NCBI GenBank assembly: GCA_965248535.1
Contig: CBDFJR010000002.1
Coordinates: forward strand, 1,152,001-1,216,000
Reading direction: 5' to 3'
Origin: Phormidesmis sp.
GTDB lineage: Bacteria; Cyanobacteriota; Cyanobacteriia; Leptolyngbyales; Leptolyngbyaceae
Length of the DNA: 64,000 bases
Shown here: piece after piece, positions 8,972 to 62,571 of the stretch
Layout of the letters: each line of letters begins with the position of its first letter
How positions within the stretch are numbered: position 1 is the stretch's first letter
Position numbers and translations under genes: made by a program
The notes under the pieces: model-generated
Databases searched by the model: none
What the model saw: the letters and a program-made list of their open reading frames with translations, nothing else
Told to the model about the DNA's origin: nothing

Positions 8972-8987
8972 TAGTACAAATGATCTA
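8972..8987. promoter_or_regulatory. Possible cyanobacterial LexA box
   Basis: TAGTACAAATGATCTA; one core mismatch to RGTAC-N3-DGTWC, in an AT-rich intergenic region. Confidence 0.35.
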
Positions 8988-9080
8988 TTTTAGGAATAAG
9001 CGCTGGTTGCTCGACAGCCGGGAGCTTTGACAAAAAAGATTCTGTCCATCCCTAAACCCTCAACGCTGGAAGCCAAAATC

Positions 9081-10109: not shown

Positions 10110-10291
10110 TCCGCCAAACTAACTCCGAGGAGTCATATCGAACTCCTTACCAAGATTTCGCTTGCAGGGGGTTTGGGGAAGGCAACCGTCCCCCAATGGG
10201 GTTTTGGGGGCACGTCCCCAAGGGTCGGCAGCCCAAGACCATCGCTTCATCGCCAAAGATCTGGACTAGTCAAAGTTAAGTTGGTGAACTA
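10107..10291. mobile_element. Putative 185-bp MITE with TA ends (IS630-like)
   Basis: Imperfect TIRs TAGTCCGCCAAACTAACT vs TAGTTCACCAACTTAACT (14/18); internal G/C hairpins (TTGGGG...CCCCAA); no transposase. Confidence 0.6.
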
Positions 10292-10315
10292 CCAGCCATC
10301 AACGCTAAATGCCGA

Positions 10316-10353
10316 AAAGAAATCAGGGGGAGCCAGAACTCCCCGGTTGCTTT
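10316..10353 (-). terminator. Probable rho-independent terminator of pdhA
   Basis: Minus strand GGGGAG-ttctgg-CTCCCC followed by a T-rich tail just after the stop. Confidence 0.5.
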
Positions 10354-10358
10354 CGAGC

Positions 10359-11835: not shown

Positions 11836-14035
11836 GTGCGTATTCCGCTCGATTATTATCGGATTCTGGGTTTACCCATCCAGGCGACTGCCGACCAACT
11901 AAAGCAGGCGCATCGCGATCGCACCCTGCAACTCCCTCGCCGTGAATATTCTGAAGCAGCGATCGCGGCGCGTCGTCAGTTGCTTGATGAAGCCTACGGA
12001 GTGCTGTCAAAAATAGATCATCGCCAAAGCTATGATGCCAGCTTTTTGGCCAGCCCCTACGAGTCCGATCGCAGCCAGATAGACTTGGTGCAGCCTGATG
12101 CAGATCGTGCCCCCAGACCCCCGATCGCCCAGCATTGAGATCCATGACAAACAACTGATCGGGGCGCTGCTGATTTTGCAGGAGCTAGGCGAATATGAAC
12201 TAGTTTTGAGATTAGGTCGCCCCTATCTCAGCAGTGGCAACGCCAACTTAAAAGACGGTCGCTTTGGTGATCCCAGAATTGTGCTGTCTGATATTGTCTT
12301 GACAGTGGCATTATCCTGTCTTGAGCTAGGTCGCGAGCAGTGGCAGCAGGGGCAATATGAAAACGCAGCCGAAGCGTTAGAAACCGGGCAAGAGCTTTTG
12401 CTGAGAGAAGGGCTATTTACCAGCGTTCGAGGTGAGATTCAGTCCGATCTCTATAAGCTGCGCCCCTACCGAATTTTAGAACTCCTCGCCTTGCCTGATG
12501 ACACCTCGATCGAGCGGCGCAACGGGATGAAACTGCTGCGCGATATGCTGCGAGAGCGCGGCGGCATTGATGGCTCAGGCAATGATCAGTCTGGGTTAAG
12601 CATTGATGACTTTTTGCGGTTCATTCAGCAGTTGCGCGGCTATCTCACCGCCGAAGAGCAGCAGACCTTATTTGAAGAAGAGGCGCGTCGCCCGTCAGCA
12701 GTGGCCACCTATTTGGCGGTTTATGCCCTGATGGCACGAGGCTTTGCAGAGCAGCAGCCCGCGCTGATTCGCCGGGCAAAACTGATGCTGATGCGCTTGG
12801 GCAGTCGGCAAGATGTGCATCTAGAACAGGCTGTCTGTGCACTGCTTTTAGGGCAAACCGAAGAAGCCAGCCGGGCCCTAGACCTCAGTCAAGAATATGA
12901 ACCGCTCGTGTTTATTCGCGAAAATTCTCAAGGGGCACCCGATTTATTGCCAGGGCTATGTCTATATGCCGAGCGCTGGCTGCAAGATGAAGTGTTTCCG
13001 CACTTCCGGGACTTGTCAAAACAGCGCGTCTCGCTCAAAGACTACTTTGCTAACGAGCAGGTGCAAGAATATCTCGAAGAGTTGCCCGCCGAGTCTGAGT
13101 CAGCAGAGTGGACGGCTCAACAGCACTGGAACCGACGCAAAGCCGTTTCTCAAACGATCGCGCCTCAGCCTTCTAACCTCACCCCTTCTAATGGGCGAAC
13201 CATCCGATCGGCTCAGGTTCACGAAATGGATGCCGATCGCTCGTCTCGCGCTGCCACGGCCACGCTGACCGGAGCCGCCGCCAGCGTCGCAACCCTGCCT
13301 GATGCTCAGGAAATAGCCAATCTCTCGCCCGAAGGAGGCTTAGACGCTTCGGGTCAACGCGGGCGATCGGGCGGCGATCGCCCGCGCAGAAATCTCGACA
13401 ATGGGCATCGCGTCCCAGACGCAGACGATTTGCCGCCTCGTCGCAGTGAAGGGCAGCCTGCAAAAGTCAAGCGCCGCCGGGGCTTGCCGCTACCGCTGAT
13501 GCTGTTGGGAATTTTTGCGGTAGGGGCAGTGGGCTTTTTGCTGTTTCGATCGCTGAAGTTTCTGGCGGCTAAATCCACTGACGATCAGCTATTGGTGCAG
13601 CTTGACCAGCCTGTGATCCCGATTCCTGTGCAAACTGCCGCGTCTCCGCTCTCTGGCGAGATGAACCAGGCAATGGCCCAACGAGTTTTAGAGCTTTGGC
13701 TAGATGCCAAGAAAGACGCAATGGGGCAATCTCACACGGTTGAAAAACTGACTCAAGTTTTAGCAGAACCCAAACTGGCTGAGTGGCGCAAAAACGCTGA
13801 AGACGCAAAGCGAGAAAACTGGCACAAACAATATGAGCACACCGTCAAAGTAGAGGCGGTTGAGGCTAGCCCGGCCAACCCCGGCCGAGCAACGGCGACT
13901 GCTACGATCGCTGAAGTGACCAAATATTACGAAGGCGAACAACTCGCCGACACCAAAACCGACAATCTGCAAGTCCGCTATTCACTGGTGCTGCTAGACA
14001 ATCAGTGGCGCATTAAAGACTGGCAAGTCTTATAG
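11836..14035 (+). pseudogene. ftn2: Cell division protein Ftn2/ZipN (ARC6 homologue; J-like N-domain, TM, IMS domain), split by a +1 frameshift; possibly a sequencing artefact
   Basis: ORF 11836-12138 (MRIPLDYYRILG) and ORF 12098-14035 (GALLILQELGE, LRPYRILELL, DLLPGLCLY, YEH...WRI). Removing one C from a C5 run at 12110-12114 or 12118-12122 fuses them. Confidence 0.88.
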
Positions 14036-14168
14036 TGTTGAGTCCGTAACGTCAACGTTAATCAATTCATCACGATTTCTTGCAGTGGATTGAGCAAAGA
14101 AAATCTAAAATCAGAAAGTAACGATTCTAGGGGCATCTCTGGGGAGATCTTCCCCTGGGTGATTTGGC

Positions 14169-15155
14169 ATGATCGAAACTCTGCTCCACGCCTACACGCC
14201 TCTGATTCTTTGGACGGGCCTAGGGATTCTATCTTTTCGATTTGTGCCGCAAACGCTCCCTCGCCTGATGGGTCGCACTCTATATTGGGTTGGCGTTCCC
14301 TGGCAGCTTTTTGCGCTGGCGCGGCAAACTGACTTTTCTCACCAAGTGGGGCTGGCTCCGGCTGTGACCCTAGGAACGCTGGGAACTGGACTGCTCCTAG
14401 CCTGGTCGGTGCTGCAACTGCTCGGTTTTTGGCTCAAGCAAGACGGCTTTCAAGAGCATGAAGAGCAGGGAAAACGGTTGCGATCGTGGCTTCCTCCCCT
14501 CGATCGCCCCCATCAAGGCACCTTTGCGATCGCGAGTATGCTCGGCAACACAGGCTTTGTAGGGTTGGGGATCATTCCCTCACTGCTCACCACAGGCGAC
14601 ATGAGTTGGGCGATTTTCTTTAGCGTGACCCAAAACCTCGTCGGCACCTACGGCATTGGGGTGTTAATCGCCAGTTATTATGGGCGGCTAGAACAACCCA
14701 ACCACTGGTGGCTACTCGGTCGTGATGTGCTCCTAGTGCCATCGCTTTGGGCGTTTACGATCGGCTACTTTACCCAGTCCATTCCCTTTCCTGACGTGGC
14801 AGAAGTCGTGATCGACTCCTCGCTGTTATTTGTGATTCCCGCCGCCTTTTTGCTGATGGGAATGCGCCTGAGCCAGCTTCAGGGCTGGAAAAGTTTGAGA
14901 GTCGCCCTGATTCCAGTGACCCTCAAAATTATGGTGCTGCCAAGTCTGGTCGCCTTGGGAACCACCTTTTTAGGACTCTCTGGTGATCCTCGCTTGTCTC
15001 TTGTCTTAATGGCAGGAATGCCCAGCGCCTTTGCCAGTCTGATTTTGGCCGAAGAATATAACCTCGATCGCGACCTAGCTTCTAGCAGCATTGCCTTAAG
15101 CACAATCGGACTGTTGCTCGTGATCCCGCTCTGGCTATTCCTTTTGGGGGGTTAA
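14169..15155 (+). CDS. AEC (auxin efflux carrier) family transporter
   Basis: About 10 TM segments, GNTGFVG and AGMPSA motifs. Confidence 0.88.
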   Translation: MIETLLHAYTPLILWTGLGILSFRFVPQTLPRLMGRTLYWVGVPWQLFALARQTDFSHQVGLAPAVTLGTLGTGLLLAWSVLQLLGFWLKQDGFQEHEEQGKRLRSWLPPLDRPHQGTFAIASMLGNTGFVGLGIIPSLLTTGDMSWAIFFSVTQNLVGTYGIGVLIASYYGRLEQPNHWWLLGRDVLLVPSLWAFTIGYFTQSIPFPDVAEVVIDSSLLFVIPAAFLLMGMRLSQLQGWKSLRVALIPVTLKIMVLPSLVALGTTFLGLSGDPRLSLVLMAGMPSAFASLILAEEYNLDRDLASSSIALSTIGLLLVIPLWLFLLGG

Positions 15156-15247
15156 CACGCTTAAAGACAAAAAAAATGTATCAATCCATACTAGGGATGA
15201 GATTAGTGCTAGGATTTACTGGAAAAGAATTTGCCTCCAGCACTCCT

Positions 15248-16039
15248 ATGCCAATCGCGTTAACGGCAGAAGCTAAAAGCGCTCAATCCAGCATGAAGCT
15301 AGGTCGAGTGCTCATTGTTGAAGATGAAGATTTGATTCGAGACACGATCGCGCTGACCCTAAGCGAAGAAGGCTATGAAGTGCTGACCGCAGCCGACGGG
15401 CGCAGCGCTCTAGAAGCCATCCAAAATGCAACGGGCAAAAGCCACCTCTCGTCTTTCTCAAGATTCCCCAATCCGCCAGATTCTATCAAGCTCGATCTGA
15501 TCATTTTAGATCTGATGCTTCCCTACATCAACGGACTCGACCTCTGCCGCCTAGTGCGTCGAGAAGGCAACAGCATTCCCATTCTGATGCTGAGTGCTAA
15601 GGGAACCGAAACCGATCGCGTGGTCGGGCTAGAAGTCGGTGCCGATGACTACTTGACCAAACCCTTTGGAATGCGAGAACTCGTCGCCCGATGCCGGGCC
15701 CTGCTGCGACGGCATCAGCAGTTTCAAACCTCTGGGCAGGCTCCTACCCTCAAGTTTCAAGACATTACCGTCTTTTCTCAAGAGTGTCGCGTCACCGTGC
15801 GTGGAGAGGAAGTTAATTTCTCACCTAAAGAATTTAAACTGCTAGAGCTATTTATGGGCCACACCAAGCGAGTTTGGTCACGCGATCAGCTACTCGAAAA
15901 GATTTGGGGGCCTGATTTTATTGGCGACAGCAAAACCGTCGATGTCCATATCCGATGGCTGCGGGAGAAGTTAGAAATTGACCCCAGCAACCCTGAATAT
16001 TTGGTCACCGTGAGAGGATTTGGCTACCGCTTTGGCTGA
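15248..16039 (+). CDS. sphR: OmpR/PhoB-family response regulator (SphR-like)
   Basis: REC domain (VEDE, LDLMLP, KPF) plus winged helix (TVDVHIRWLREKLE, VRGFGYRFG); upstream of a PhoR-type kinase. Start uncertain (15176-15293). Confidence 0.8.
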   Translation: MPIALTAEAKSAQSSMKLGRVLIVEDEDLIRDTIALTLSEEGYEVLTAADGRSALEAIQNATGKSHLSSFSRFPNPPDSIKLDLIILDLMLPYINGLDLCRLVRREGNSIPILMLSAKGTETDRVVGLEVGADDYLTKPFGMRELVARCRALLRRHQQFQTSGQAPTLKFQDITVFSQECRVTVRGEEVNFSPKEFKLLELFMGHTKRVWSRDQLLEKIWGPDFIGDSKTVDVHIRWLREKLEIDPSNPEYLVTVRGFGYRFG

Positions 16040-48155: not shown

Positions 48156-48381
48156 GGCAGATAGCTCCGATCGGGTTTAGCCACGGGTAGCCCTAAGCGA
48201 AAAACCGCTTAAGCTTGTGTCAAGGAACAACCTTTTGCAACGACGATCTCTCATTAGTTTTGTTCCCAGATAGAACGCAATTGATAAGTTTTTCTTTAGT
48301 CTGACTAGATTGGACGATCGCAGACTCTAATTTGCCGACTTGACGTATGCTGAAAAGTCGAACGTGCTTGAGCATTCACTT

Positions 48382-49869
48382 ATGGGGTTCACAAAGCCGA
48401 TCGAGTCCAACAAACTTTGGCTGGGGCTAGGATTGATTTGGGTCGGGTCGCTGGGTCTGCGATTTTGGGGACTCGGACGCTTTAATGCTCTGGTTTTTGA
48501 CGAGGTGTATTATGTCAAGTTTGCTCACAACTATTTGACTCACACCCCTTTTTTTGATGGGCATCCTCCCCTGAGCAAATATCTGATCGCGATCGGCATC
48601 TGGGTCGGCAATCAGCTTCCCTTTGGCAGCGACACGGTTAACTCGCTGGCGGGGTCGCCCCTCACCACTTGGAGCTATCGCTGGCTCAATGCCCTCACTG
48701 GTTCCTTGATTCCGCTGGTGGTGGCGGCGATCGCTTATGAACTCAGCTATCGCCGCAGCTATGCGTTAATCGCTGCCCTGTTTGCCGCCGCCGATGGATT
48801 GTTTTTAGTCGAGTCTCGCTATGCCTTAAACAACGTTTATTTAGTGATATTTGGACTGTTGGGGCAGTGGTTTTTTCTCAAAGCGCTGCACGCACCGGGC
48901 AAAAAATGGCTGCCGTGGATGGCCCTAGCGGGACTGTTTTTTGGGGCTTCTGCGGCGATTAAATGGAACGGTCTATGGTTTTTGCTGGGGGCCTATTTGC
49001 TGTGGGGCATAGCGCTGGCCCTTCGGCTGGTGAGAGGGCTGCTGCGATCGTCCACCTCTCCCCTCCCTGACCCATTGGCACCGATGCCCCTCGATCGGCT
49101 GGCGCGACTCAATCCCGTCTATCTGCTGATAAATTTGGGAGCCGTTCCTGCCATTTTCTATCGCCTGATCTGGATTCCGCATCTCAATCTCAGCCGCGAT
49201 TTTGGCTTTTGGGAGGTGCAGAAACAGATTTTGGCTTATCACGAGCGGGTCGGCAGTGGCGAAGCCATTCACCCCTATTGCTCAACCTGGTTTAGCTGGA
49301 TCTGGATGCAGCGCCCGGTGGCTTATTTTTATCAAGTTGCCAGCAGTTTGACAGCTCCGATTCCGATGGGTAGCACGGTCTCGGCTATCACACCAACCAG
49401 CGTCATCTACGACGTTCATGCGATCGGCAATCCATTTTTATGGTGGTTTTCGACGCTGGCGATCGCCCTAATGGGTTGTGTTGTGATCGAAAACTTCGGC
49501 GCATTGCTCACGCCCCGTCAACCAGTCGGTTTATTGCCGACCCATGACGTTTGGATCGGGCTATTTTTAGTAGTCAATTACGCCGCCAATCTTTTGCCTT
49601 GGGCGAGAGTGACTCGCTGCGTGTTTCTCTATCACTACATGGGGTCTTCGGTGTTTGCATCGCTGGCGTTGGCTTGGCTGGTCGATCGCTGGTTTCGCAG
49701 CAACACACCACGGTTGAGACGGTTGGCAATTTGGACGATCGGGCTAGTCTGTGTCGCGTTTATTTTCTGGATGCCCATTTATTTAGGGTTGCCTTTGATG
49801 GAGCGGCAATATGGTTGGCGGATGTGGCAGGTCGCGATCGGCAATTTTTGGCTACTGCGATGGATCTAA
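48382..49869 (+). CDS. Protein O-mannosyltransferase-like glycosyltransferase (PMT/GT39)
   Basis: FDEVYY DE motif, HPPLSK, KWNG, HPYCS.W.SW, FLYHY; multi-TM. Confidence 0.88.
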   Translation: MGFTKPIESNKLWLGLGLIWVGSLGLRFWGLGRFNALVFDEVYYVKFAHNYLTHTPFFDGHPPLSKYLIAIGIWVGNQLPFGSDTVNSLAGSPLTTWSYRWLNALTGSLIPLVVAAIAYELSYRRSYALIAALFAAADGLFLVESRYALNNVYLVIFGLLGQWFFLKALHAPGKKWLPWMALAGLFFGASAAIKWNGLWFLLGAYLLWGIALALRLVRGLLRSSTSPLPDPLAPMPLDRLARLNPVYLLINLGAVPAIFYRLIWIPHLNLSRDFGFWEVQKQILAYHERVGSGEAIHPYCSTWFSWIWMQRPVAYFYQVASSLTAPIPMGSTVSAITPTSVIYDVHAIGNPFLWWFSTLAIALMGCVVIENFGALLTPRQPVGLLPTHDVWIGLFLVVNYAANLLPWARVTRCVFLYHYMGSSVFASLALAWLVDRWFRSNTPRLRRLAIWTIGLVCVAFIFWMPIYLGLPLMERQYGWRMWQVAIGNFWLLRWI

Positions 49870-50804: not shown

Positions 50805-51245
50805 GTGATCAAACCCCTGCTTCCCTGCTTGATAGTTGGCGCACTGCTAGCCTACATCCCCGCTGCGTCTGCCGTTGAATGGACTAAGATTGCCGAAAAC
50901 TCTGTCAAAGACAAGTTTTTTGTGGATGAAAGCTCGATTCAGCGCAATGGCGCGATCGTGTGGTATTGGGAATATCGCGAATTTCCCCAGGCAAACAATG
51001 CCTTTTTAGACACCAACGTCGAGCAGCCCGTTCATGGAGCCGTGATTCGCTGGTCAGTAGACTGCACGACCAAGGCCCAGCGCTTAAGAAAAGTCAACGC
51101 CTACACCACCAACAGAAAGCTGATCCAAAAATTTGAGTATGGCGATAGCGGCATGTTATCGCAGCCAAAACCCGGCAGCAGCGCCTATGCGATCGTCGAT
51201 TATGTCTGCACTCCCAAAGATTCTGAAAAGCCCGCACCCAAATAA
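50805..51245 (+). CDS. Exported surface-adhesin E-like protein
   Basis: Signal peptide (ASA), W..I....FVDESSI, DC...C pair. Confidence 0.6.
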   Translation: MIKPLLPCLIVGALLAYIPAASAVEWTKIAENSVKDKFFVDESSIQRNGAIVWYWEYREFPQANNAFLDTNVEQPVHGAVIRWSVDCTTKAQRLRKVNAYTTNRKLIQKFEYGDSGMLSQPKPGSSAYAIVDYVCTPKDSEKPAPK

Positions 51246-52065: not shown

Positions 52066-55000
52066 CTAATTGATTCTGACGCGGAAGCGCACAAAACCAA
52101 AGTTGCTGCCCGGCGTATTGGGAAGGTCTCCCAGCCCAAAAATCACAGACCCATTAGGATTCGTCTGATCTGGGCAGGCGTTTCCGGCAGGGAGAGGCGC
52201 TAAGGGCGAGAACACCGTGCCTCCTGATACGGGGGCAGTGGCGTTTTGCTGAATCTGCACCGTGTTGCCAATCAAAGTGGTGCCCGTCGGAATCTGGTCG
52301 CAGAGGTTTGTGGCAAAGGCAGGAGTCGCCCCATCGGACAGGAAGTAGACCGTGTAGGTCACCTCGTCTCCGGTGCGAATTTGGGAGCCGCCCGCGACTC
52401 TAATTTGCCCTTGAAGCGGAATTTGTGACCAACCAGGGGCGTTGTCGTTCAGCGTTGAAGGGTCATCTTGAATGGCATTAAAGTCAAACCCCGAAACGGT
52501 CGCACCGCCGCGAGTCACGTTGGTAATTCGCTTCACCAGCCGCAGCCCTTGACCGCCGATCCTCAAGCCAAAGTTCGCCGTCAAGATCGATTGCCGTGCG
52601 CCTAGCGTTACTGGCAGGGTGACGGGCGTAGTTGCATTGGCCCCTCCCGGTGGGGTAACCGTCACGGTGTAATTTCCAGGGGGCACATTGAGGAAGCTGT
52701 AGTTACCATTGGCATCCGTGATGGTGGTTCCGACAACGACTCCGGCCGCGTTTCTCAACGTCACGGTTGCCCCCCCAATGCCAGGATCACCTGGGTCAGC
52801 AATCCCATTGCCGTTGAGGTCATTGAAGACCAAAGTCCCGATCGTGCCAGGAGCTATTTGCAGACCAAAGGATCGGTTGATCGATCCGCCTGGGGGCGCT
52901 TGGGCCGCCGGAATTCCCTGGGGGTTGGACGTGGTGGTCGTAAACCCTGCGGGAGGGGTGACCACGATGGCGTACGTGATGCCGGGAGGCACGTTGGTGA
53001 ACAGGAAGTTACCTGCTGCATTCGTGGTCGTCGTCGCGATGGTGTTTCCGGCGGGATCGCGGAGCGAGACGGTGACATTTGGAATGCCCGGTTTTCCGGT
53101 TGGGTCGCCGTTCCCTACGTCATCTCGGAAAACAAGCGTGCCGATCGTGATCGGCGGTTGTCTGACTCCAAAGTCTACGGTGTCCAGGTTGGCCCCTGCC
53201 GGAAACGCCACGGTTTGACTCAGGCTCGGTGCCCCCGTCGGAGTGGTCGGCGAGAAGCCAGCCGCGAGGTTGCTAATCGTCACCGTGTATCCCGCAGGGT
53301 TGGCCGCAAGCAGCCCCGTGAAGCTATAGGTTCCCGTCGCGCTGGTGGTAGTAGTGCGGTTAACGGGATTGCCGCCACTGTCTGTGCCTGTTAGGGTGAC
53401 AGTGACTCCTGCTAGACCGGGTTCTAAGCCGTTTTGCAGGCCGTTGCCGTCAAAGTCGTTAAAGACCCGATCGCCCAAGGTTCCCGTTTGAGCAAACACC
53501 CCAAAATCTGCGGTGTCGATGGTTTGTCCAGAGCCGAGAGTGACTGCAATGGGCGTGGGCGTAGTGATTGTAGACCCAACGGGGGCAGCGGCGGTGATGG
53601 TGTAGCTACCAGGCGTGACATTGGTGAACTGGTAGTTCCCGGCGGCATTGGTGGTCGTGGTGGCGACGACGGCTCCGGCCTGGTTCCGCAGGGTCAGCGT
53701 GATTCCGGCCGCTCCCGTCGTTTCACCGGGATCTTGAACGCCGTTATTGTTGACATCGTTGAAGACAAAATCTCCGATCGTGCCAGGAAGTTGCCTAAAC
53801 CCAAAGTCAGCGGTCGGCACATTTTGACCGGGATTTAAGGTGGCGATCGTCTGCACCAAGGGGGTCGTATTTGAGAACCCAGCAGGCGGCGTGACGGTGA
53901 CCGTATAGTTGTTGCCCGGTGGCACATTGGTGAACTGGTAGTTGCCATTGGCATCGGTTACCAGCGTTCCCACAACGGCTCCGGCTGAGTCTCTTAGGGT
54001 CACGGTGGCTCCAGCGATGCCGACTTCTCCGGGATCTTGGGTGCCATTGCCGTTGAGATCGTTGAACACTGTGTCCCCGATCGCGCCAGGACTCTGCCGA
54101 ATCCCAAAATCGACCGTCTGGATGCTCTGCCCCGCAGTCAGCGTCACCGTTTGGGGATTGGGGTTAGTGGCAATAAAGCCCAGCGGCGGCGTGGCTGTCA
54201 CCGTGTAGGTTCCCGGCGAGAGCGTGGCAAACTGGTAGTTCCCAGAAGCATTCGTGACCACGGTTTGGTTGACCGGGGTGTTGTTGGTGTCTCGACCCGA
54301 AAGCGTTAGAGTCACCCCTGCAACTCCGGTTTCACCCGCCTCTTGGGTGCCGTTGCCGTTCGGATCGTTGAACACCGTATCCCCGATCGTGCCCGACCCT
54401 AGGGCGATGGTGGTAGTTTTGGTCACAATCTGCGGCGTGGGTGCTGGAGAACCAGACTGTCGCCGAATATTAGTATCTAGAAAAGAAGTTGCATTAATTT
54501 GCGTCACATCTTGGGGCGGCACTCCTGCATTGGGGGTCACCCGCAAAATAAAGCTGCCCGTCTGCCCGGCTGCCAGAACTCCGGTGTCGGGTATGCCGTT
54601 GCCATCCGTGTCAGGTAGAGGGTTGCCGGCAGCAGTGAGCAAAACTGCGGTGTAGTTGCCGTTTGTGCCTGTGAGCGAGAGATTGATCAGATCGGTGGTA
54701 AAAAAGTTGTTGGTGACGGTAAAGGGATGATCGACCGCCGTGCCAACCTCGGTTGCCCGCGTTGTATCGGGGGTAATCGTGAAGTTTCCGGCTCTGGTGG
54801 GCTGACGATCAAACAAAGGAATGGGATTTCCCGGTGCGGTGCCGAGGTTGGCTTGCAGCAGCGCTTGGTTGTTGGGGGTGTAGTTACTCAGCGTTATTGT
54901 CCAGATCCCGGCATTCGCCAGACCGTTGACGGGGACGATATCACCCCCATTGTTGAGATCGCCCCGGTTGTTCCAAATCGCGTTGTCTGAGCCAGTTCCC

Positions 55001-55782
55001 GCGATGACAGCCCCCGTTGGACTGGTGTAGGAGACAGTTCCGCTGTTGTCCAAATCGAAGTTGCGAAGAAACAGATTGGTAGTGCCCGGAGGAACTAGCG
55101 CATAAAACGGAACGGTGAGGTTTCCCCCAGTGTCTTGCTGAAAGGTGCCCAAAAGTTGCCCAATCAGCAGGTTAGACACCCCTGAAATCGAGATTTGGAA
55201 CCCGTTATCGTCGTCGTTGAGGCTAGGAGTCGTGTCGCCCGAAATTGGGCCTGCGCCTGTTTCACTCGTGATGATATAAACCCCAGGCGCAGTGATTGCC
55301 GGAAAGGTGATATCTGACGAAACCCCGATCGTGGTGGAAGCAGGAGGGGTTTGACTGCTAATCACCGCTCCGGTTGGGCCGAGAAGCTGAAAGCGGGTTG
55401 GGTCAGGGTTAGCGCCTCCAGCGCCGATTAGGTTGGCGTTGTTGTCCACCTCATCTCGCGGCCCATTGCTGCCAGCATCGATGATCGAGATGATGACGCT
55501 GCCGCCAGCACTGGTGATATCTGCTTGGGTAAGGTTGATGAAAAATTGGTGGCGTTGATAGCCCCCAGCTTTGCCCGGCTGATTGGTGGTGTACCAGTCT
55601 CCCACTCCTGCATTGCGAGCGGGCCCACTGGTCTGAAAGTTGAGTCCTGGAACGGATGGAAGAATGGTTTGAGCTTTAACCGGGCTAGGAGGGCACAGCA
55701 AGATTGCCAGGGTGCTGCCAGCCAGTAGGCACCAGAGTTTAGAGAAACGGCTGGTTAAATTTGTAGAAGCAGATGTTCGCAC
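52066..55782 (-). CDS. Large exported adhesin: unknown N-domain, Ig-like domain, six SdrD B-like repeats, C-terminal truncated DUF11 domain
   Basis: Signal peptide (VKA-Q); six GxIG.xVFND.xGNG...T.T.A.GNY.F...FG repeats; LVKRIT...GDEVTYTVYF...CDQIP...GFVRFRVRIN end. Confidence 0.85.
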   Translation of the reverse strand: MRTSASTNLTSRFSKLWCLLAGSTLAILLCPPSPVKAQTILPSVPGLNFQTSGPARNAGVGDWYTTNQPGKAGGYQRHQFFINLTQADITSAGGSVIISIIDAGSNGPRDEVDNNANLIGAGGANPDPTRFQLLGPTGAVISSQTPPASTTIGVSSDITFPAITAPGVYIITSETGAGPISGDTTPSLNDDDNGFQISISGVSNLLIGQLLGTFQQDTGGNLTVPFYALVPPGTTNLFLRNFDLDNSGTVSYTSPTGAVIAGTGSDNAIWNNRGDLNNGGDIVPVNGLANAGIWTITLSNYTPNNQALLQANLGTAPGNPIPLFDRQPTRAGNFTITPDTTRATEVGTAVDHPFTVTNNFFTTDLINLSLTGTNGNYTAVLLTAAGNPLPDTDGNGIPDTGVLAAGQTGSFILRVTPNAGVPPQDVTQINATSFLDTNIRRQSGSPAPTPQIVTKTTTIALGSGTIGDTVFNDPNGNGTQEAGETGVAGVTLTLSGRDTNNTPVNQTVVTNASGNYQFATLSPGTYTVTATPPLGFIATNPNPQTVTLTAGQSIQTVDFGIRQSPGAIGDTVFNDLNGNGTQDPGEVGIAGATVTLRDSAGAVVGTLVTDANGNYQFTNVPPGNNYTVTVTPPAGFSNTTPLVQTIATLNPGQNVPTADFGFRQLPGTIGDFVFNDVNNNGVQDPGETTGAAGITLTLRNQAGAVVATTTTNAAGNYQFTNVTPGSYTITAAAPVGSTITTPTPIAVTLGSGQTIDTADFGVFAQTGTLGDRVFNDFDGNGLQNGLEPGLAGVTVTLTGTDSGGNPVNRTTTTSATGTYSFTGLLAANPAGYTVTISNLAAGFSPTTPTGAPSLSQTVAFPAGANLDTVDFGVRQPPITIGTLVFRDDVGNGDPTGKPGIPNVTVSLRDPAGNTIATTTTNAAGNFLFTNVPPGITYAIVVTPPAGFTTTTSNPQGIPAAQAPPGGSINRSFGLQIAPGTIGTLVFNDLNGNGIADPGDPGIGGATVTLRNAAGVVVGTTITDANGNYSFLNVPPGNYTVTVTPPGGANATTPVTLPVTLGARQSILTANFGLRIGGQGLRLVKRITNVTRGGATVSGFDFNAIQDDPSTLNDNAPGWSQIPLQGQIRVAGGSQIRTGDEVTYTVYFLSDGATPAFATNLCDQIPTGTTLIGNTVQIQQNATAPVSGGTVFSPLAPLPAGNACPDQTNPNGSVIFGLGDLPNTPGSNFGFVRFRVRIN

Positions 55783-57905
55783 TATCTCATACCTCCTGCG
55801 GGTTCTAGTTGCAGGTCTTCTTCTTGGACGGTCACTTCAATGTTTCTGGCATCTTTGTAGATCAGTTCGACGCGCCGATCGCGGGCAAAATCTAAGCGGG
55901 TGTCTCCCTCAGAGATGAGTTGCCGTTCTCCAAACGATCGGAGGGTCATGCGAGATGGATCAACGCCTTTGCGGATTAAGTAGTTGCGGGCTGAGATAGC
56001 CCGTCGCTTGCCTAAATCGAGGTTGTAGGCATCACTGGCGCGGGGATCGGTGTGTCCTTGAAGTTCCACAATAATGTTGGGGTTTTCTAACAGGACTTGA
56101 GCAATGCGATCGAGCACTTTGGCACTGGTGGGGCTGATGAAGTCTTTATCCAGCGCAAAGTGGACGTTTTTGGGCGTTTTGAGCACGATTGGGGTGGTCG
56201 GCGGCACCTCTGGAACAGGAGGCGCTTGGGCGATCGGCGGATTCGTGCAGCGTGGAACCGTGAGTAACGGAATTCTGCTGGAGGAGGTTGCTGAACTGTC
56301 TGCCGTTCTGACTAGGGCATTGATCGCGGGTTCTGAGGTGCCATAGGTTGGATCGGTGGCGATCGCGCTAACCCGTTCTCCTGACTTCAGGGCAGTTGCC
56401 ATAAAGGTGAACTGTCCCTGACTATCGACCGGAATTGATCCAATCGGGTCACCTAATGGGCCGGCCGAGTCTTCACCACTGACGCGATAGATCTGAACCT
56501 GGGAGCCGGGATCAGCTTTCCCCGTCAGTTGAGCCTGATTGCCCGACAGCATGAACTCTCTAGACGCAAATTCGGGGGCGTTGATTGCCGCGTTGGCCGT
56601 GTCTTTGCGACGGTTGGGCGAGTTGCGTTTGGGATTAATGCCATCGCCGCGCTGATAGTCGTGGACGCTGACATTATCTTGCGTGACTAAATCGATGCTG
56701 AGTCCTTCAAGTCTTGAGAAGCGGTTGCTTTCAATCACATTGCGACTGCTGCGCGGAAAGGACGCGACAACTACGCCGGGGCCGGCTTGGTTAGCGATCG
56801 TGTTGCCTGTCACCTGATGGTCATTGCCCATCAAATAAATGGCAGCGCGTCGATAGCGCCGACCGTTGTAGGTGATCTGGTTATCGCGAATCTGCGCTGC
56901 GCCTTCAGGCTTAAACAGGTAAACCCCTGCGCCATCGTTGCCGCAAATTAGGTTTCCGGTGACTTGGGCTTTGTCGATGTTGCCCTCAAGCCGAATCCCG
57001 TCTGGCATTCCGGCGATGCCGTTGCCGACGATCGCATTCTCACTCACGATTAAGTTATCTGCCCGCACCGAGGTAATCACCGCGCTGCCATCGTGATTGG
57101 CGATCCAGTTACGGCGAATGGTGGTGCCTGTGCTGTTAAACACCGACACGCCAAAGGCTGAAGTAGTTGGCGGAACACTCTGATCAGGACGAATGCCCAA
57201 CCAATTGTTCTCAATCAGAACATTTTTAGGTGGCACGTCATCGGGATAGAAGGCCGAGAAATTGGCTGGGGTTTTTTGCTTGCTGACATCAGGCGGGGGG
57301 AGCCGATGGGCGATGAAAATGTCCGCCGGGGGCGTTCTCTCGGTGTCGTCGTGGTTGTCTGTGAAGCCATAAATGCTTAAGCCGCGAATTGTGACGTGAT
57401 CAGCCACAACCGACAAACCACGCGGCACAAACGCGCCTTGACTAACTGTGAGTTCGACGATCGGGGCCGCTAGGGGCAACTCGGCGATCGCCGGAGTGTT
57501 GGCGGCATAGCCCATCTGCGTCGTACCGTCGATCACCACTGGAACAGCCAGATCGGGCAGCAGCTTAGACACTCGAATCACCGTTTGCCCGATCGGTAGC
57601 TGAAAGGTGATTTCTGAGGTCGCTCCCGGTGCCGTCGAGACTTGAGATTTTTCTGCCGCGCTGAGCCGATCGGGGGATAAAGTGCCGTTGACTAGCTCGA
57701 TCGCTTCTCGTAGGGTTAGCCCACCATCAGCCTGAACGCTGTCTTGATCACTATTGACCACCACTCGCAGCCGTGGTAGGGGGGTGCCTTGGGCTAGGAT
57801 CGGCGCTGTCGGCAGCCCTCCCATTAGGGTTAACAACAGCAGGGCAAGGAGTCTTGGTTTACCCATCACCCTGGTCTCTTTTTTCTGTCTTCGATTGCTT
57901 ATCAT
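55782..57905 (-). CDS. CSLREA-like motif, right-handed beta-helix, Ig-like and OmpA C-terminal domain protein
   Basis: VVNSDQD...LTLREAI; I..N.I parallel beta-helix repeats; VHFALDK, GHTD, YNLDLGKRRA, RRVE. Confidence 0.85.
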   Translation of the reverse strand: MISNRRQKKETRVMGKPRLLALLLLTLMGGLPTAPILAQGTPLPRLRVVVNSDQDSVQADGGLTLREAIELVNGTLSPDRLSAAEKSQVSTAPGATSEITFQLPIGQTVIRVSKLLPDLAVPVVIDGTTQMGYAANTPAIAELPLAAPIVELTVSQGAFVPRGLSVVADHVTIRGLSIYGFTDNHDDTERTPPADIFIAHRLPPPDVSKQKTPANFSAFYPDDVPPKNVLIENNWLGIRPDQSVPPTTSAFGVSVFNSTGTTIRRNWIANHDGSAVITSVRADNLIVSENAIVGNGIAGMPDGIRLEGNIDKAQVTGNLICGNDGAGVYLFKPEGAAQIRDNQITYNGRRYRRAAIYLMGNDHQVTGNTIANQAGPGVVVASFPRSSRNVIESNRFSRLEGLSIDLVTQDNVSVHDYQRGDGINPKRNSPNRRKDTANAAINAPEFASREFMLSGNQAQLTGKADPGSQVQIYRVSGEDSAGPLGDPIGSIPVDSQGQFTFMATALKSGERVSAIATDPTYGTSEPAINALVRTADSSATSSSRIPLLTVPRCTNPPIAQAPPVPEVPPTTPIVLKTPKNVHFALDKDFISPTSAKVLDRIAQVLLENPNIIVELQGHTDPRASDAYNLDLGKRRAISARNYLIRKGVDPSRMTLRSFGERQLISEGDTRLDFARDRRVELIYKDARNIEVTVQEEDLQLEPAGGMR

Positions 57906-60900
57906 TGTCCTTCTCCCACAACCACGTTTGCAGTCGGCGTTTGTCCAGCAGGTAATTGCGATTGCGTTGAAAAAGGCTGAAACACAGACGTTGGTGGCTG
58001 CGTTGCTGAGGATTGAGTTCCTGGCGTTGGTGACTGTGTTGTCGGTGGCGCTGCTGCGGTTGGTTTAATCTGTGACTCCTGCTGCTGCGGCGGCGCAACT
58101 TTTTGCAAGCCAAACCCATTAAAGAGTTCGTTCACCTTAAAGGAGAGAGTGGCGTAGAAGCCCCCCTGCGATCGGCTGCCGTTGAAGTCGCGATCGTTGT
58201 TGATGTTTCCAAAGCTATAGCCGCCTGCAACCCTCAAGTTAGGCGTGAGATAATAGCCCGCTTCGAGCAAAAATCCGACTTCGTTAAAGCCCGTGATGGA
58301 CTGGCCGATCCACCGCACTTCGCCGCCCAAATCCCAGTTATAGCCCAGTCGATAGGTGGCGCGTAGCTGAGTTAACGAGATGAAGTTGGTGCCGACGAGA
58401 TCCCGTGCTGAAAAGGATTGTGTGTTGCGTAGGGCGTATTTGCCAAAGAACTCCCATCGGAAGTTGGGGGCATAAATCGCTTCTAAAGAGGCGAGATGCA
58501 CTTTTGAGCCAGTGCCACTGCCAAACAACAGCGTCGTCGGAGTCACCCCAGGGTTTTGCCGATATTCATAGCGAAACAGCATATTGAACTTATCGCTGTT
58601 GGGGTCGCGATAGGCCAAGCCGACCTTGATGTTAGAGGTGTCGCCCAAGCCCGTCAGCAATTGGTTAGAGGCGTTGGCTTGCTGGAAGCGCACCAAGGCA
58701 GTGATGGCTGGAGAGATTTTTCCGGCTGCTCCGGCTGACCAAACCGTGTTGTTGCCGATATCAGAGTTGCGACGCTCAAACCGCGCACTGGCCTTAAAGT
58801 CCGGGTTGTCGGTGTAATCAACTCCGACGCTGTAGCTGTCGCCAGAGTTGACCCCCAGCGAGGCAGAACTTTGCCCGACCGCGTAGGGTTGAGCAAACTG
58901 CTGACCTGCGGCGGTGTAGGCGAAGATGTCTCCAAAAATGCGCTCATAGCCGAGGTTAATTCTCAAGCCGGGAGACAGCACAATGCGGTGATTTAGCCCG
59001 ATCGCGCCCTGCCCTGTCACGCCACCATTCACCCCAGACAGCACGGCATAGCGCCCGGTGAGGGAGGTGTCATCGCTCAACCGCTGATCGACGAGGGTTT
59101 CTAAACTGGTGATCGAGTTGCTAGACGACTGCCCGCCAGAGAGAAACTGCTGCGCCAGTCGCATCGTCACGCCGGGATAGACCTTCCAGTCCAGTCCCAG
59201 GGTGGTGCGATCGGGATAGAGCGAATCATTAGTGCCCAAACTAAGTTCGTTTTGAGCACGGAAGGTGAGGCGATCGTTAAACGGCACCGATAGCCGCGAA
59301 ACCAGTTGGTTGCTGTCGTCGTTGAGATTGTTGGTAACGCGATCTTCGCGGCTGCGGTTGACCCAATCTAAACTGGCGGTGACGATGCCAAATTTTTGCT
59401 CAACGCCCGCGCTGATGGTGGTCAAGCTGTTGTCAACACGACCCGCCCGCAGCGGCTCCTGTCCGCACTGTGACAAACCGGGAGTTGTGCAAAAAACATT
59501 GCTGCTCAGGTCGAATAAATCGACTAACCCGATCGTGGCCGTCGAGGCAAATCCGAAATTTATTTCCCGATCGACCTGGGCCCGAACCTGAGTGTTTTCT
59601 CCTACCTTGGCTGCGACGTTTGCGCCATAGCGGGTTTGCCCCGGCGTAAAGCTAAAGGTGGCATTGTTAGAGAAATTTTCATCTGTCGAGCGATAATAGG
59701 CGCGAGTCAACAAGCCCGGAGTCAGCGTGGCTTTGGCCTCAATTCGATAAGCCGAACCCGACACCTTATCTGAGAAGGGATTGGCATTGTTCGATCGGGC
59801 ATATTCCGCCACAATCTGCCCATCTTTGCCAAACGAGAACAGCGCATCGGCTCCAAAAAGCTCAAAGTCTTGGCTGCCCCGGTCTTCGCGCAGATAGCTC
59901 AACCCTGCCCAGCTTTCTCGCTTGGTTTCGCGAGAGAAGTTATATTGCAGTCGCCCTGCATAAAGATTAGTGCCGCCCGTGCCTGCGCCGTCATATTCAT
60001 AAGTGACGACGATGCGTCGCACCAGCACCCGCCCAAACAGGTCAAACTCAGTCGCCTGCACGGGTCGGCGGAAAATAATCGTGCCCCGATCGTAGTCAAT
60101 CTCATAGTCCTGACCGCGATAAGCAGCCACCCGCTCTACCACGCTACCCGGACGGTTGATTTCCTCCGTCTCGATAAACACGTTTTCACTGCCGCCAATC
60201 ACCAAGCGCCGCGACAAGAAATAGTAGCCACTCGTGCCGTTAGCGGCGATCGTGTCGCGCTGAAACCCGTCCAAATTGTTGCCGTAAGCGGCCGTCGCTT
60301 GCAGATTGCCAAAGTTGTAATTGGCTTTGAAGCCGTGCAGTTGGCGAGTCGTGGCGGTGAAATATTGCGACGCGGTGGCAAACTCTTCGGTGCGATAGTC
60401 GCCCCACATGGCGTAGTTGTGTCCGCCTGAGGGGGAAGTCTGCTCAAGTTTGAGATAGACACTATCGATCGAAGGCGTTAGATAATCAACCGTTGAGCTA
60501 TCGCCATAGGTCGGATAGCTCTGATCGCAGAACTGAAGATCTCGAAACAGCCGCGTCGTGCCGTCGCAAGTCTCATTTAAGGGCCGCTGGTTGTTAAACG
60601 CCCCCGTCAACAGCCAGTTGCCCACTTTGCCCGTGGCAAAAAGAGAGGTGCTGACATCAAAACGAGCACCGCCTACGCCTTCGGGCAAGAAGTCTCGGTA
60701 GCGGCTATAGAAATCCGTTCCGCCTGCGCCGATGCGAAGGTTGATCGCCCCGGAGACCAGCGACGGCCGCAGATTGGTGATGAATTCAACGTCGGTGTAA
60801 GCTTCTAGATAGTCAGAATCCGGTTGCCCTGGCAGCGTTGTCGGAAACGCGAAGGGAGGCTCTGTCAGCTTCAGATCTTTTTTCGGCTCGTCGATCGCTG

Positions 60901-61564
60901 CCCGCACTCGCACCTTTTTTGGCTCTAGCGTGGACTGCAACTCAACCGAAAACCGACCTTGACGAGCGATAACTTGAAAGCCTGCCCGGTCAGTGTCCGC
61001 ATCTGCGCCAATAAACTTCCCGGCGCTGCTGGTCAGCGTCACCGTTGCATCTGCGTTGATGGGAACGCCTTTTTCGTCCACAATCTGTCCCGAAAGGGTG
61101 ACGGTTGAGCGACCGTCAGCAGGAATGCGCGATGCCGAAGCGGGAACGAGTTCGACCCGCACGATCACCGCCTTGACCGGACTAGCGATCGGCGCTACTA
61201 TTCCGCCGGGTGTAGGAGTAGCCGGATCTTGCGGAGCCGCAGGAGGCGCGATCGGGGCGACATCTTGCGGACTCGGCGCTTGCTCTCGCTGCGTCGGCTC
61301 TGGAACCTGAGCCGTTTGAGCTTTAGTTGGGTTAGCAACAACTGGCTGCACCCGATTCAGCGTCAGGGTCGCCGCCAGCCCTGAAGAATTGGGGAGCGGA
61401 GCGGCTTGAAATACGGGTTCTAGGTTGCCTGTGGTGCTCAGACCTGCTGACGCTTGAGGAAAAGACGGTAACTCAACGGCTCGACTGGCTGACGCGATCG
61501 TAATCACTCCAAAGGCAGAGGTCATTAAACTCAGCCCGAACTTAAATGATGAGAGATGTTGCAT
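57902..61564 (-). CDS. Very large outer-membrane beta-barrel protein with an N-terminal invasin-type Ig domain
   Basis: Signal peptide; IPADGRSTVTL Big_1-like domain; about 900 aa of alternating amphipathic strands rich in Y/F/G; no TonB box recognised. Confidence 0.75.
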   Translation of the reverse strand: MQHLSSFKFGLSLMTSAFGVITIASASRAVELPSFPQASAGLSTTGNLEPVFQAAPLPNSSGLAATLTLNRVQPVVANPTKAQTAQVPEPTQREQAPSPQDVAPIAPPAAPQDPATPTPGGIVAPIASPVKAVIVRVELVPASASRIPADGRSTVTLSGQIVDEKGVPINADATVTLTSSAGKFIGADADTDRAGFQVIARQGRFSVELQSTLEPKKVRVRAAIDEPKKDLKLTEPPFAFPTTLPGQPDSDYLEAYTDVEFITNLRPSLVSGAINLRIGAGGTDFYSRYRDFLPEGVGGARFDVSTSLFATGKVGNWLLTGAFNNQRPLNETCDGTTRLFRDLQFCDQSYPTYGDSSTVDYLTPSIDSVYLKLEQTSPSGGHNYAMWGDYRTEEFATASQYFTATTRQLHGFKANYNFGNLQATAAYGNNLDGFQRDTIAANGTSGYYFLSRRLVIGGSENVFIETEEINRPGSVVERVAAYRGQDYEIDYDRGTIIFRRPVQATEFDLFGRVLVRRIVVTYEYDGAGTGGTNLYAGRLQYNFSRETKRESWAGLSYLREDRGSQDFELFGADALFSFGKDGQIVAEYARSNNANPFSDKVSGSAYRIEAKATLTPGLLTRAYYRSTDENFSNNATFSFTPGQTRYGANVAAKVGENTQVRAQVDREINFGFASTATIGLVDLFDLSSNVFCTTPGLSQCGQEPLRAGRVDNSLTTISAGVEQKFGIVTASLDWVNRSREDRVTNNLNDDSNQLVSRLSVPFNDRLTFRAQNELSLGTNDSLYPDRTTLGLDWKVYPGVTMRLAQQFLSGGQSSSNSITSLETLVDQRLSDDTSLTGRYAVLSGVNGGVTGQGAIGLNHRIVLSPGLRINLGYERIFGDIFAYTAAGQQFAQPYAVGQSSASLGVNSGDSYSVGVDYTDNPDFKASARFERRNSDIGNNTVWSAGAAGKISPAITALVRFQQANASNQLLTGLGDTSNIKVGLAYRDPNSDKFNMLFRYEYRQNPGVTPTTLLFGSGTGSKVHLASLEAIYAPNFRWEFFGKYALRNTQSFSARDLVGTNFISLTQLRATYRLGYNWDLGGEVRWIGQSITGFNEVGFLLEAGYYLTPNLRVAGGYSFGNINNDRDFNGSRSQGGFYATLSFKVNELFNGFGLQKVAPPQQQESQIKPTAAAPPTTQSPTPGTQSSATQPPTSVFQPFSTQSQLPAGQTPTANVVVGEGQ

Positions 61565-62571
61565 TACTTGCGCCGCCCCTCCCCAAAGGTTGGTGTCACT
61601 GCAAAATTCATTCTGACTAACCCGCTGGGCGCGACTTTGACCAAGCGTGATTGACTGTTGTTTTCAATGCGATAGCGGTTGGGGGCCAGGGTGTATCCGG
61701 GCAGGCTCGTCAAGTCGAGGGTGCCATTTCGGTAGCCTGCGATCACAAACTGAAGCGAGAATAAGCCGTTAGCATCGGTGGTGATGCGGTTGCCATCATC
61801 CATATAGATCACAGCATTGGGAACGCCCGGTTCTCCGGGCTGCTGTTCGCCGTCAAAGTTTTTATCGACGAACACACGACCGATGATGGTGCCACAGTCT
61901 GACAAGATGCCGTTACGAATTCGCAGCAGGTGGCTGGCTGTGTTGCTGGTCAGTAATCCCAGGGGGCTGGTTGCTTGGGCGACGGCCAGGTTGCGACCCG
62001 TGCCACGAATTGCGTCAGGGGACAGGACGGCGGCGTAGACGAGGGTGAGCGTTTGTTGGGGGGCGAGGGTGCCAGAGAAGCTGAAGGTGATCACCGATCG
62101 AGCGACCGTGGGCTGGGCCAGGCTGCTGCTGACATCGGTCGTGGTGCCTCCGGTCGTCAAGGAAGCTTTTTGTGACTTTGAAATGTATTGCAGACCGAGG
62201 GGAAGCGTGTCTCGCACCGTGATATTGCTTGCCGAAGCAGAGCCTGAATTGCGGATCACGAGGCGATAGATAATGGTGTCGCCGGGTTCGGCGGCGGCCC
62301 GATCGCCCGTTTTTACAAGTTCTAAACCGGGGCGACCTGCCACCGTGGCGGTCACAGAAGTTGGGTTGGAAGTGGCACCCTGAACAGGCGTAGCGGGATC
62401 AGCCGCAGGACGAAAATTGCCAGCCGCCGTGTTGACCACCTCGATCGCGGTCTGGCTATTTGCAGGCAAAATCCGATTATTAAAGCCTCCTGTCACCAGG
62501 AGCACTAATAGAAGACGCAGGAGTCCACTCCCCAACGGTTTTGTCGGGAAATTCATCAAAAACATCACCAC
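61564..62571 (-). CDS. Exported DUF11 (isopeptide-type Ig) plus SdrD B-like domain protein
   Basis: LELVKT...PGDTIIY...N.G...VRDTLP...RNLA; GTIIGRVFVDKNFDGEQQPGEPG; start could be 62571, 62565 or 62556. Confidence 0.85.
   Translation of the reverse strand: MVMFLMNFPTKPLGSGLLRLLLVLLVTGGFNNRILPANSQTAIEVVNTAAGNFRPAADPATPVQGATSNPTSVTATVAGRPGLELVKTGDRAAAEPGDTIIYRLVIRNSGSASASNITVRDTLPLGLQYISKSQKASLTTGGTTTDVSSSLAQPTVARSVITFSFSGTLAPQQTLTLVYAAVLSPDAIRGTGRNLAVAQATSPLGLLTSNTASHLLRIRNGILSDCGTIIGRVFVDKNFDGEQQPGEPGVPNAVIYMDDGNRITTDANGLFSLQFVIAGYRNGTLDLTSLPGYTLAPNRYRIENNSQSRLVKVAPSGLVRMNFAVTPTFGEGRRK

Follow-up and report, generated by a model that had tools for sequence, protein, structure and literature searches.

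A CLIPPER-type isopeptide domain apparently divided between an adhesin and its adaptor in a cyanobacterial operon

The operon and its products

The stretch of DNA studied here (the window) comprises 64,000 nucleotides from the cyanobacterium Phormidesmis sp. and corresponds to positions 1,152,001 to 1,216,000 of contig CBDFJR010000002.1 (GenBank assembly GCA_965248535.1). Its minus strand carries an operon of four genes, which overlap their neighbors by 1-4 bases in the list of open reading frames (ORFs) and which encode an adaptor, a putative giant outer-membrane protein, an OmpA-type protein and a large adhesin. We propose, at a probability of roughly 60%, that one isopeptide domain of the CLIPPER kind (DUF11-type, CnaA-like) is split between two secreted proteins of this operon. 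The extreme C-terminus of the adhesin would supply the first seven strands along with K1084 as the Lys and D1162 as the catalytic Asp. The two closing strands, penultimate and last, would come from the adaptor, where they immediately follow the signal peptide and carry N47, the Asn of an N-x-A motif. This idea goes back to an inspection of the letters and ORFs of the window (the sequence-only reading), whose residue and codon coordinates were all correct on checking; the analyses described below confirm its observation and support its interpretation computationally. The genes of the operon are the following:

61564..62571 (minus strand): ORF of the adaptor, 335 amino acids, with a signal peptide, a donor hairpin, a complete DUF11/CLIPPER domain and a conserved C-terminal SdrD_B-like domain
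57902..61564 (minus strand): putative giant outer-membrane β-barrel protein, 1220 amino acids, with an N-terminal immunoglobulin-like (Ig-like) domain
55782..57905 (minus strand): β-helix/Big_6/OmpA-domain protein, 707 amino acids, peptidoglycan-binding (Pfam OmpA, E = 9.2e-19; Beta_helix, E = 7.8e-13)
52066..55782 (minus strand): adhesin, 1238 amino acids, with a signal peptide, an N-terminal region, six SdrD_B repeats and the C-terminal acceptor domain (Pfam)

A database search returned more than 2000 homologs of the adaptor, mostly cyanobacterial among the matches listed; Pfam assigns DUF11 (PF01345) to its residues 83-187 (E = 9.4e-13) and gives a weak SdrD_B match. SdrD_B is far stronger in the adhesin, where it covers six stretches (E = 2.7e-123). 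The 1220-residue protein is read as a putative giant outer-membrane barrel: its Pfam matches are all weak (Big_1, E = 3.8e-5; DUF2490; Invasin_D3; GH2_C5), and its neighbors in the protein atlas are unnamed clusters or proteins called "outer membrane protein". The operon is flanked by a pseudouridine synthase gene and a divergent UvrD-type helicase gene, and neither Pfam nor inspection of the flanks yielded a gene for a ligating enzyme within it. That attachment should need no sortase, as the sequence-only reading held, agrees with a search of the 99.76%-complete genome, in which the sortase family PF04203 has no match. The PapD-type chaperone family PF00345 likewise gave no match in this genome, whereas control genomes yielded matches; the usher family was not found in the Pfam scan of the 1220-residue protein. 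The C-terminus of the adhesin is the last strand of a domain and not a sorting motif such as LPXTG.

The donor hairpin of the adaptor and the truncated end of the adhesin

The elements from which the split domain would be built, and those that surround them in the adaptor, are located as follows:

62455..62571 (minus strand): predicted signal peptide, adaptor residues 1-39, a hydrophobic stretch followed by an Ala-x-x motif, with cleavage probably near residues 36-40
62341..62454 (minus strand): donor β-hairpin, adaptor residues 40-77, two strands that complete the last domain of the adhesin in the model
62431..62433 (minus strand): N47, candidate isopeptide-forming Asn (N-x-A with A49), proposed from its conservation
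62365..62370 (minus strand): S68-N69, start of the second donor strand, with N69 as an alternative reactive Asn
61915..62325 (minus strand): the complete DUF11/CLIPPER domain of the adaptor itself, residues 83-219, which contains K87, D121 and N194 (Pfam and 9IFR match)
61567..61914 (minus strand): C-terminal domain of the adaptor, residues 220-335, its most conserved part, with dense invariant columns in both adaptor-family alignments
52069..52554 (minus strand): acceptor domain of the adhesin, residues 1077-1238, CLIPPER-like, seven strands and without the last two (local hidden Markov model match)
52531..52533 (minus strand): K1084, acceptor Lys on strand A
52297..52302 (minus strand): C1161-D1162, invariant Cys and candidate catalytic Asp
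52174..52176 (minus strand): C1203, second invariant Cys
52069..52071 (minus strand): N1238, last residue of the adhesin, at a position that holds Asn, Asp, Glu or Gln in most relatives

The adaptor had been described from its sequence as carrying a complete DUF11 domain with K87, D121 and N194, and both Pfam and the residues bear this out. The domain scores above the cut-offs of PF01345 (48.9 bits; cut-off 24.6) and TIGR01451 (56.3 bits; cut-off 24), and the adaptor-family profile matches PDB entry 9IFR, the single DUF11/CLIPPER structure solved, with an E value of 5.3e-7. Each member of this cis triad is kept in 120 of 120 homologs (A196 in 115). In the monomer model the domain has a predicted local distance difference test (pLDDT) score of 84-93 and the strand order A, B, C ... 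E, F, G, H, with N194 on strand G (about residues 191-202) and S209/N210 on the last strand (H, about residues 212-218), so that the triad would sit on the strands expected for CLIPPER domains, with the Lys on the first and the Asn on the penultimate strand.

In front of this regular domain lies the donor hairpin. Its strands (42-47/50-53 and 64-67/71-76) have a pLDDT of 51-69 in the monomer model, and residues 16-28 in the signal peptide region form a low-confidence helix. Conservation of the hairpin is nevertheless as strict as that of the cis triad: among the adaptor homologs N47 is kept in 119 of 120, A49 in 115, and S68 and N69 in all 120, which answers the question of whether N47 would be conserved at all. 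The spacing of N47-x-A49 equals that of N194-x-A196. The sequence-only reading had regarded the hairpin as an orphan copy of the NxA...SN strands of the complete domain; conservation and predicted structure favor this, but sequence alignment does not, since hhalign gives no significant likeness between the hairpin and strands G-H of the adaptor itself (E = 0.04-0.3) and chooses a register that pairs N47 with N210 and not with N194. For both of these reasons a sequence duplication of the G-H hairpin was dropped as an argument. Docking of the donor hairpin in cis was rejected as well, given that the adaptor's domain possesses its own strands G and H and that the hairpin is modeled with low confidence in the monomer.

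To characterize the other half, residues 1071-1238 of the adhesin were searched against 1.84 billion representative proteins. This yielded 993 matching proteins at a threshold of E ≤ 1e-3, of which 296 also reached E ≤ 1e-10. In 136 of the best 150 matches the domain (162-168 residues) is placed exactly at the C-terminus of its host protein, and the lengths of these hosts range from 113 to 2266 amino acids. Within these 136 terminal domains the residue corresponding to K1084 is Lys in 132 (three gaps, one Val), while D1162, both Cys residues (C1161 and C1203) and a Tyr (Y73 in domain numbering) are kept in all 136. A disulfide between C1161 and C1203 beside the reactive site is probable; none of the explanations considered here accounts for the invariance of the two Cys residues.

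An AlphaFold2 model of the acceptor domain built from 23 sequences (pLDDT 89.2; predicted template modeling score, pTM, 0.86) shows seven strands; strand F is the last of them, and the stop codon follows. The model contains no strand equivalent to residues 191-202 or 212-218 of the adaptor, whose cis domain, when the models are compared, follows the same strand order and then adds the two extra strands that bear N194 and S209/N210. We call the acceptor a split domain rather than an ordinary CLIPPER member because the Asn-bearing penultimate strand is absent from the same chain; this truncation is an observation made in silico. The more specific claim that the end of the adhesin is equivalent to the adaptor strand preceding the Asn strand is backed by the order of the predicted strands but receives no support from sequence alignment.

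For membership of the acceptor in the DUF11 family, also claimed from the sequence, there is evidence on both sides. In its favor are a TIGR01451 match (27.3 bits over residues 1137-1178; cut-off 24) and a local profile-profile match to the DUF11 core of the adaptor (E = 9.5e-6 over 47 columns, confined to strands B-C and the Asp-x-x-Pro motif), for which the alignments were trimmed to the terminal domain; an untrimmed hhalign run was discarded, as it paired an upstream ordinary DUF11 domain of other rows and not the terminal domain. A BLASTP comparison of the adaptor with the acceptor gave an E value of 0.049 over 37 residues. Against membership, Pfam DUF11 has no match to the acceptor at E ≤ 0.01. 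A sequence search of the PDB with the acceptor alone returned nothing at E ≤ 1, and Foldseek returned nothing from the PDB at E ≤ 1e-3. The VIA structural neighbors of the acceptor are the isopeptide-containing middle domains of the Gram-positive pilins CppA, PilA, BcpA and RrgB (Z = 6.7-7.9); the best of these Z scores is in the middling range and 9IFR is not in the best 50 listed. For the modeled domain, such scores suffice for the description "CnaA-like pilin middle domain" and not for family membership.

The 14 of the best 150 matches that do not place the domain exactly at the C-terminus consist of 12 giant proteins and one protein of 1169 amino acids with internal repeats of the core only, and one of 1078 amino acids (P0268) whose match ends a few residues short at both ends. 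The giants (P0121, P0128, P0143, P0146 and eight more; 3305-6303 amino acids) contain 14-39 internal repeats that match the acceptor core alone, and P0250 (1169 amino acids) contains nine. All of these proteins represent regular CLIPPER-like stalks in tandem, akin to the terminal module.

The predicted complex and a possible isopeptide bond

The acceptor domain and adaptor residues 40-82, each with its own family alignment, were submitted to complex prediction. The pair scored 0.86, compared with 0.01 for the best control; the mark for this score is reached by 116 of 157 solved complexes versus 2 of 215 mismatched pairs, a calibration that holds roughly when, as here, the alignments are user-supplied. 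Three runs agreed in at least 92% of the contacts, with 131-140 contacts each and a partner pLDDT of at least 85. The prediction is one of donor-strand completion of an incomplete Ig-like fold, in which the hairpin takes the place of both absent strands. Donor strand 1 runs antiparallel to strand C (domain residues 90-92 with adaptor residues 49-51, and 85-88 with 53-54), and donor strand 2 runs parallel to strand A (domain residues 12-16 with adaptor residues 66-71). Residues 12, 14, 16, 71, 73 and 75, which face the core from strands A and B, are covered by the donor. On the adaptor side, the interface comprises residues 43, 45-57, 61 and 63-78 (partner pLDDT 86). The complex as modeled would thus reproduce the layout of CnaA-like domains, with the Lys strand and the Asn strand on opposing sheets.

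The sequence-only reading had expected strand insertion that brings K1084, D1162 and N47 close to each other. Besides the high score, we found that K1084 and D1162 both contact A49, which lies two residues from N47 on the same face of the strand, and that N47 itself is inside the predicted interface. Starting from this arrangement, the proposed mechanism can be formulated as follows. After export via the Sec pathway, the hairpin of the adaptor would insert into the unfinished domain of the adhesin and bury its hydrophobic face, thereby uniting Lys, Asp and Asn at one site, where a Lys-Asn isopeptide bond would then probably form by itself, as it does within intact CLIPPER domains. From gene order and the 1-base overlap of the two genes we infer that the C-terminal domain of the adaptor serves as a docking module for the giant outer-membrane protein. 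If this conserved C-terminal half is indeed held by the protein encoded beside it, the adhesin would be tethered at the cell surface by its C-terminus without the help of a sortase or a chaperone.

Which Asn would react is less clear from the contacts. Among the 25 least-uncertain contacts, those of K1084 are with adaptor residues 49, 68, 69 and 71, and the K1084-N47 pair is not included. N69 therefore remains an alternative to N47 as the reactive residue. The same absence speaks for a second explanation, in which donor-strand complementation is non-covalent and Lys, Asp and Asn merely stabilize the interface; oligomers of BsaA from Clostridium perfringens are SDS-stable (SDS, sodium dodecyl sulfate) even without their bond, according to the accessible part of the preprint (bioRxiv 10.1101/2024.11.04.621531). 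We consider this explanation unlikely, if by no means far-fetched: the strictness with which the split triad is kept (Lys in 132/136, Asp in 136/136, Asn in 119/120) is on a par with that of the cis triad of the adaptor (120/120 each), and its residues fall in the very topology in which intact CLIPPER domains form their bond.

The last residue of the acceptor raises yet another possibility. Among the 136 terminal domains it is Asn in 72, Asp in 45, Glu in 10, Gln in 5 and something else in 4, so that the acceptor Lys might react in cis with this conserved residue (Asn, Asp or Glu) and the domain would close upon itself; Lys-Asp isopeptides are known from CnaB-like domains, as stated in the available portion of PMC12617251. 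A self-closing domain is in our view very improbable. The residue in question ends strand F, whose interface residues (limited to 161 and 167-168) touch the donor in the model, Glu and Gln are ill suited to a reactive role at this place, and the invariant donor Asn would be left without an explanation.

Linkage, a second operon and known assembly systems

That the truncated domain acts as a sorting signal, as the sequence-only reading had put it, accords with its strictly terminal position and with its linkage to the genes for the adaptor and the outer-membrane protein. We sampled an even set of 151 cyanobacterial genomes, the members of which are kin, so that the following counts are not independent. 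Seventeen genomes contain the terminal domain, and all 17 also have a strong full-length match to the adaptor; one genome has the adaptor without the domain, no genome has the domain without the adaptor, and both are absent from 133. Of the 27 domain genes, 23 are located 5-15 kb downstream of an adaptor gene that shares their strand and contig. The order adaptor, giant outer-membrane protein, cargo recurs in 8 of 8 operons from five genomes.

Two of the sampled genomes deserve separate mention. In G128 (contig 47, 9070-9921), the sole one with a strong adaptor match that lacks the acceptor domain, the adaptor region falls within a frame of 1310 amino acids that may represent a fusion of the adaptor to the outer-membrane protein or an assembly artifact. 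In G083 (contig 20, 19101-26414), three acceptor-ending genes follow in tandem downstream of one pair of adaptor and outer-membrane protein genes, which suggests that several cargoes share one type of anchor.

The sequence-only reading had also envisaged partner proteins encoded elsewhere, and a scan of the genome for truncated DUF11 ends or NxA...SN starts uncovered a second operon with such proteins. This paralogous operon is situated about 90 kb away in the same genome (contig 2, 1104000-1120000, minus strand); it does not possess the 707-residue OmpA-type gene of the first operon, as judged from its ORF list. Its genes, with coordinates counted within the 1104000-1120000 stretch, are:

13269-15836 (minus strand): DUF7925 protein, 855 amino acids, with a donor hairpin and a truncated acceptor
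12618-13241 (minus strand): DUF11 protein, 207 amino acids
11015-12466 (minus strand): type-2 adaptor
7464-11018 (minus strand): paralog of the outer-membrane protein, 1184 amino acids
4288-7467 (minus strand): cargo protein, 1059 amino acids, ending in the same acceptor domain

Members of the type-2 adaptor family (about 480-550 amino acids) have the same donor feature directly after the signal peptide, with N34 (equivalent to N47) kept in 119 of 120 and A36 (equivalent to A49) in 114 of 120. In the family of the 855-residue protein (117 aligned sequences) the donor motif also follows the signal peptide, its Asn, Ala and Thr and the later Thr-Ser-Asn each being conserved in at least 95%, and a truncated domain in which Lys and Glu are conserved closes these proteins. 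Since it combines donor and acceptor, the 855-residue protein is a candidate shaft subunit. The 207-residue protein ends like a truncated acceptor, but Lys and Asp are missing from the positions where they would be expected; donor hairpins may find in it an unreactive cap or a chaperone.

By pattern search, the donor motif is present in 86 of 97 adaptors of type 1, in 91 of 100 of type 2 and, within the 855-residue family, in 113 of 113 proteins, but in none of 81 full-length terminal-domain proteins. Genome-wide, 6 of 1238 signal-peptide-like ORFs match the pattern, and three of these come from the two operons. The remaining matches (two dehydrogenases and one TPR protein) were set aside as unrelated cytoplasmic proteins.

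These distributions bear on a further explanation, namely that the giant outer-membrane protein reads the C-terminal domain as a signal for sorting or secretion that suffices by itself, and that the hairpin exists for some other purpose. It would fit the strictly terminal position of the domain (136 of the best 150 matches), the fact that the domain models well alone, and the constant presence of the outer-membrane protein gene alongside (8/8 operons). It would leave the near-invariant Lys-Asp pair unpaired and without a role, however, and does not account for a donor/acceptor grammar that extends over three protein families; nor does it sit well with a complex score of 0.86 against at most 0.01 for the controls, or with a donor that shields residues on strands A and B which point toward the core and would otherwise be exposed. 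We regard such an autonomous signal as improbable, more so than a non-covalent complex.

Several points also weigh against the split, covalently closed domain that we favor. The acceptor is modeled confidently by itself; its last residue is Asn, Asp, Glu or Gln in 132 of 136 cases, for which our model gives no account and which could point to a reaction in cis. Pfam DUF11 and Foldseek are silent on the acceptor, the VIA scores are middling, and the hairpin has no significant sequence likeness to the G-H hairpin. The calibration of the complex score is approximate, a high score may reflect the knowledge that the predictor has of intact CnaA and CLIPPER folds, as is usual for the halves of split domains, and the K1084-N47 pair is missing from the best-defined contacts. 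With respect to linkage, the sampled genomes are related, and 4 of the 27 domain genes, all of them in two fragmented assemblies, are not linked to an adaptor gene.

Comparison with systems already described places the split domain among known mechanisms. In CnaA-like domains the isopeptide bond joins the first and the penultimate strands across two sheets, and in the CLIPPER/DUF11 structure 9IFR it connects Lys715 with Asn806, with Asp748 as the catalyst (both according to the available sections of PMC12617251). The logic of Lys on the first strand, a catalytic Asp, and Asn on the penultimate strand is shared by the proteins studied here, and the adaptor's own domain is a regular member of this kind. 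The difference is that the one-chain bond of 9IFR stabilizes the stalks of adhesins, whereas here the last two strands reside on a second protein; the available sections of PMC12617251 describe intramolecular CLIPPER/DUF11 bonds only and do not mention split domains.

[quoted passage not shown] There, too, an N-terminal donor Asn, an acceptor Lys and an acidic residue are conserved and no ligating enzyme is involved; the likeness is one of mechanism only. BsaA forms a TasA-like homopolymer in a Gram-positive biofilm matrix, unlike the split CnaA-like domain discussed here, which would join different partner proteins in a diderm cell that has a giant outer-membrane protein. A TasA/camelysin-like fold was not matched by our proteins; Pfam gives DUF11 and SdrD_B, and the fold matches are CnaA-like pilin domains.

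The sequence-only reading had cited archaeal threads as a precedent for donor-strand complementation with isopeptides. This holds for the combination of a donor strand with an inter-subunit isopeptide, but the precedent is looser than stated: in the part of PMC9715654 that is available, the bond proposed for Saci_0406 connects the N-terminal amine of Asp24 with Asn57 of subunit n+2 and is hence not a Lys-Asn bond, and these threads are archaeal and have another subunit fold.

With sortase-assembled pili (RrgB, BcpA, CppA, PilA) the system has in common the resemblance of the acceptor to isopeptide middle domains, and it would share the covalent linkage of surface-fiber proteins; the inter-subunit bond of those pili, in contrast, is the work of a sortase that acts on an LPXTG-type motif. 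SpyTag/SpyCatcher pairs are laboratory-made splits of intact Gram-positive CnaB-type domains. In them, as in the arrangement proposed here, a peptide with one reactive residue completes a truncated domain that holds the other two and locks covalently, but here the split would be a natural one and would concern a CnaA-like domain.

The proposed arrangement of tip, shaft and base across the two operons follows the logic of chaperone-usher pili. In type 1 and P pili the adhesin at the tip is purely an acceptor and the subunit at the base purely a donor (summarized in the available part of PMC11821415); these pili are non-covalent, use a single donated strand and need a PapD-type chaperone and an usher, which sets them apart from the proteins considered here. 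Covalent fiber assembly is otherwise tied to the sortases of Gram-positive bacteria. It is with some reserve, and at a little less than an even chance, that we read the split CLIPPER domain as the coupling device of an undescribed class of diderm surface fibers, in which tips would be acceptor-only, shafts (the 855-residue protein) would have both halves, and base adaptors would be donor-only and sit in the giant outer-membrane protein, all joined by a covalent click that requires no chaperone, usher, sortase or adenosine triphosphate (ATP). If this is true, the acceptor would be a portable "attach me" signal on hundreds of different cargo proteins and the pair a natural, orthogonal counterpart of SpyTag/SpyCatcher.

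A full-text search of the literature, with subscription journals outside its scope, found no report on a naturally split DUF11/CLIPPER domain or on this operon. Three of its matches were put aside as having no bearing on a split domain: the "DUF11" in a paper on tafi is DUF1102, a Litorilinea preprint concerns a single-chain protein of 49 DUF11 domains, and a Synechococcus paper merely borrows the signal peptide of a DUF11 protein.

Should the proposed split domain be real, cells of the Gram-negative type would possess an enzyme-free means to fix large adhesins covalently to an outer-membrane anchor, and the second operon would probably fix whole fibers likewise. This would show what a conserved C-terminal domain that has no name so far (993 representatives, E ≤ 1e-3) and thousands of cyanobacterial proteins annotated as "DUF11 domain-containing" are for, explain how fibrillar adhesins are anchored in filamentous cyanobacteria, and provide natural tag/catcher pairs for protein engineering.

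Two genes on the opposite strand, located 1-4 kb downstream of the operon of the window, are recorded here as side observations. One (48340-49866, plus strand) encodes a homolog of the PMT-family protein O-mannosyltransferases, conceivably with a connection to glycosylation of the adhesin, and the other (50805-51242, plus strand) a small Adhesin_E-like protein.

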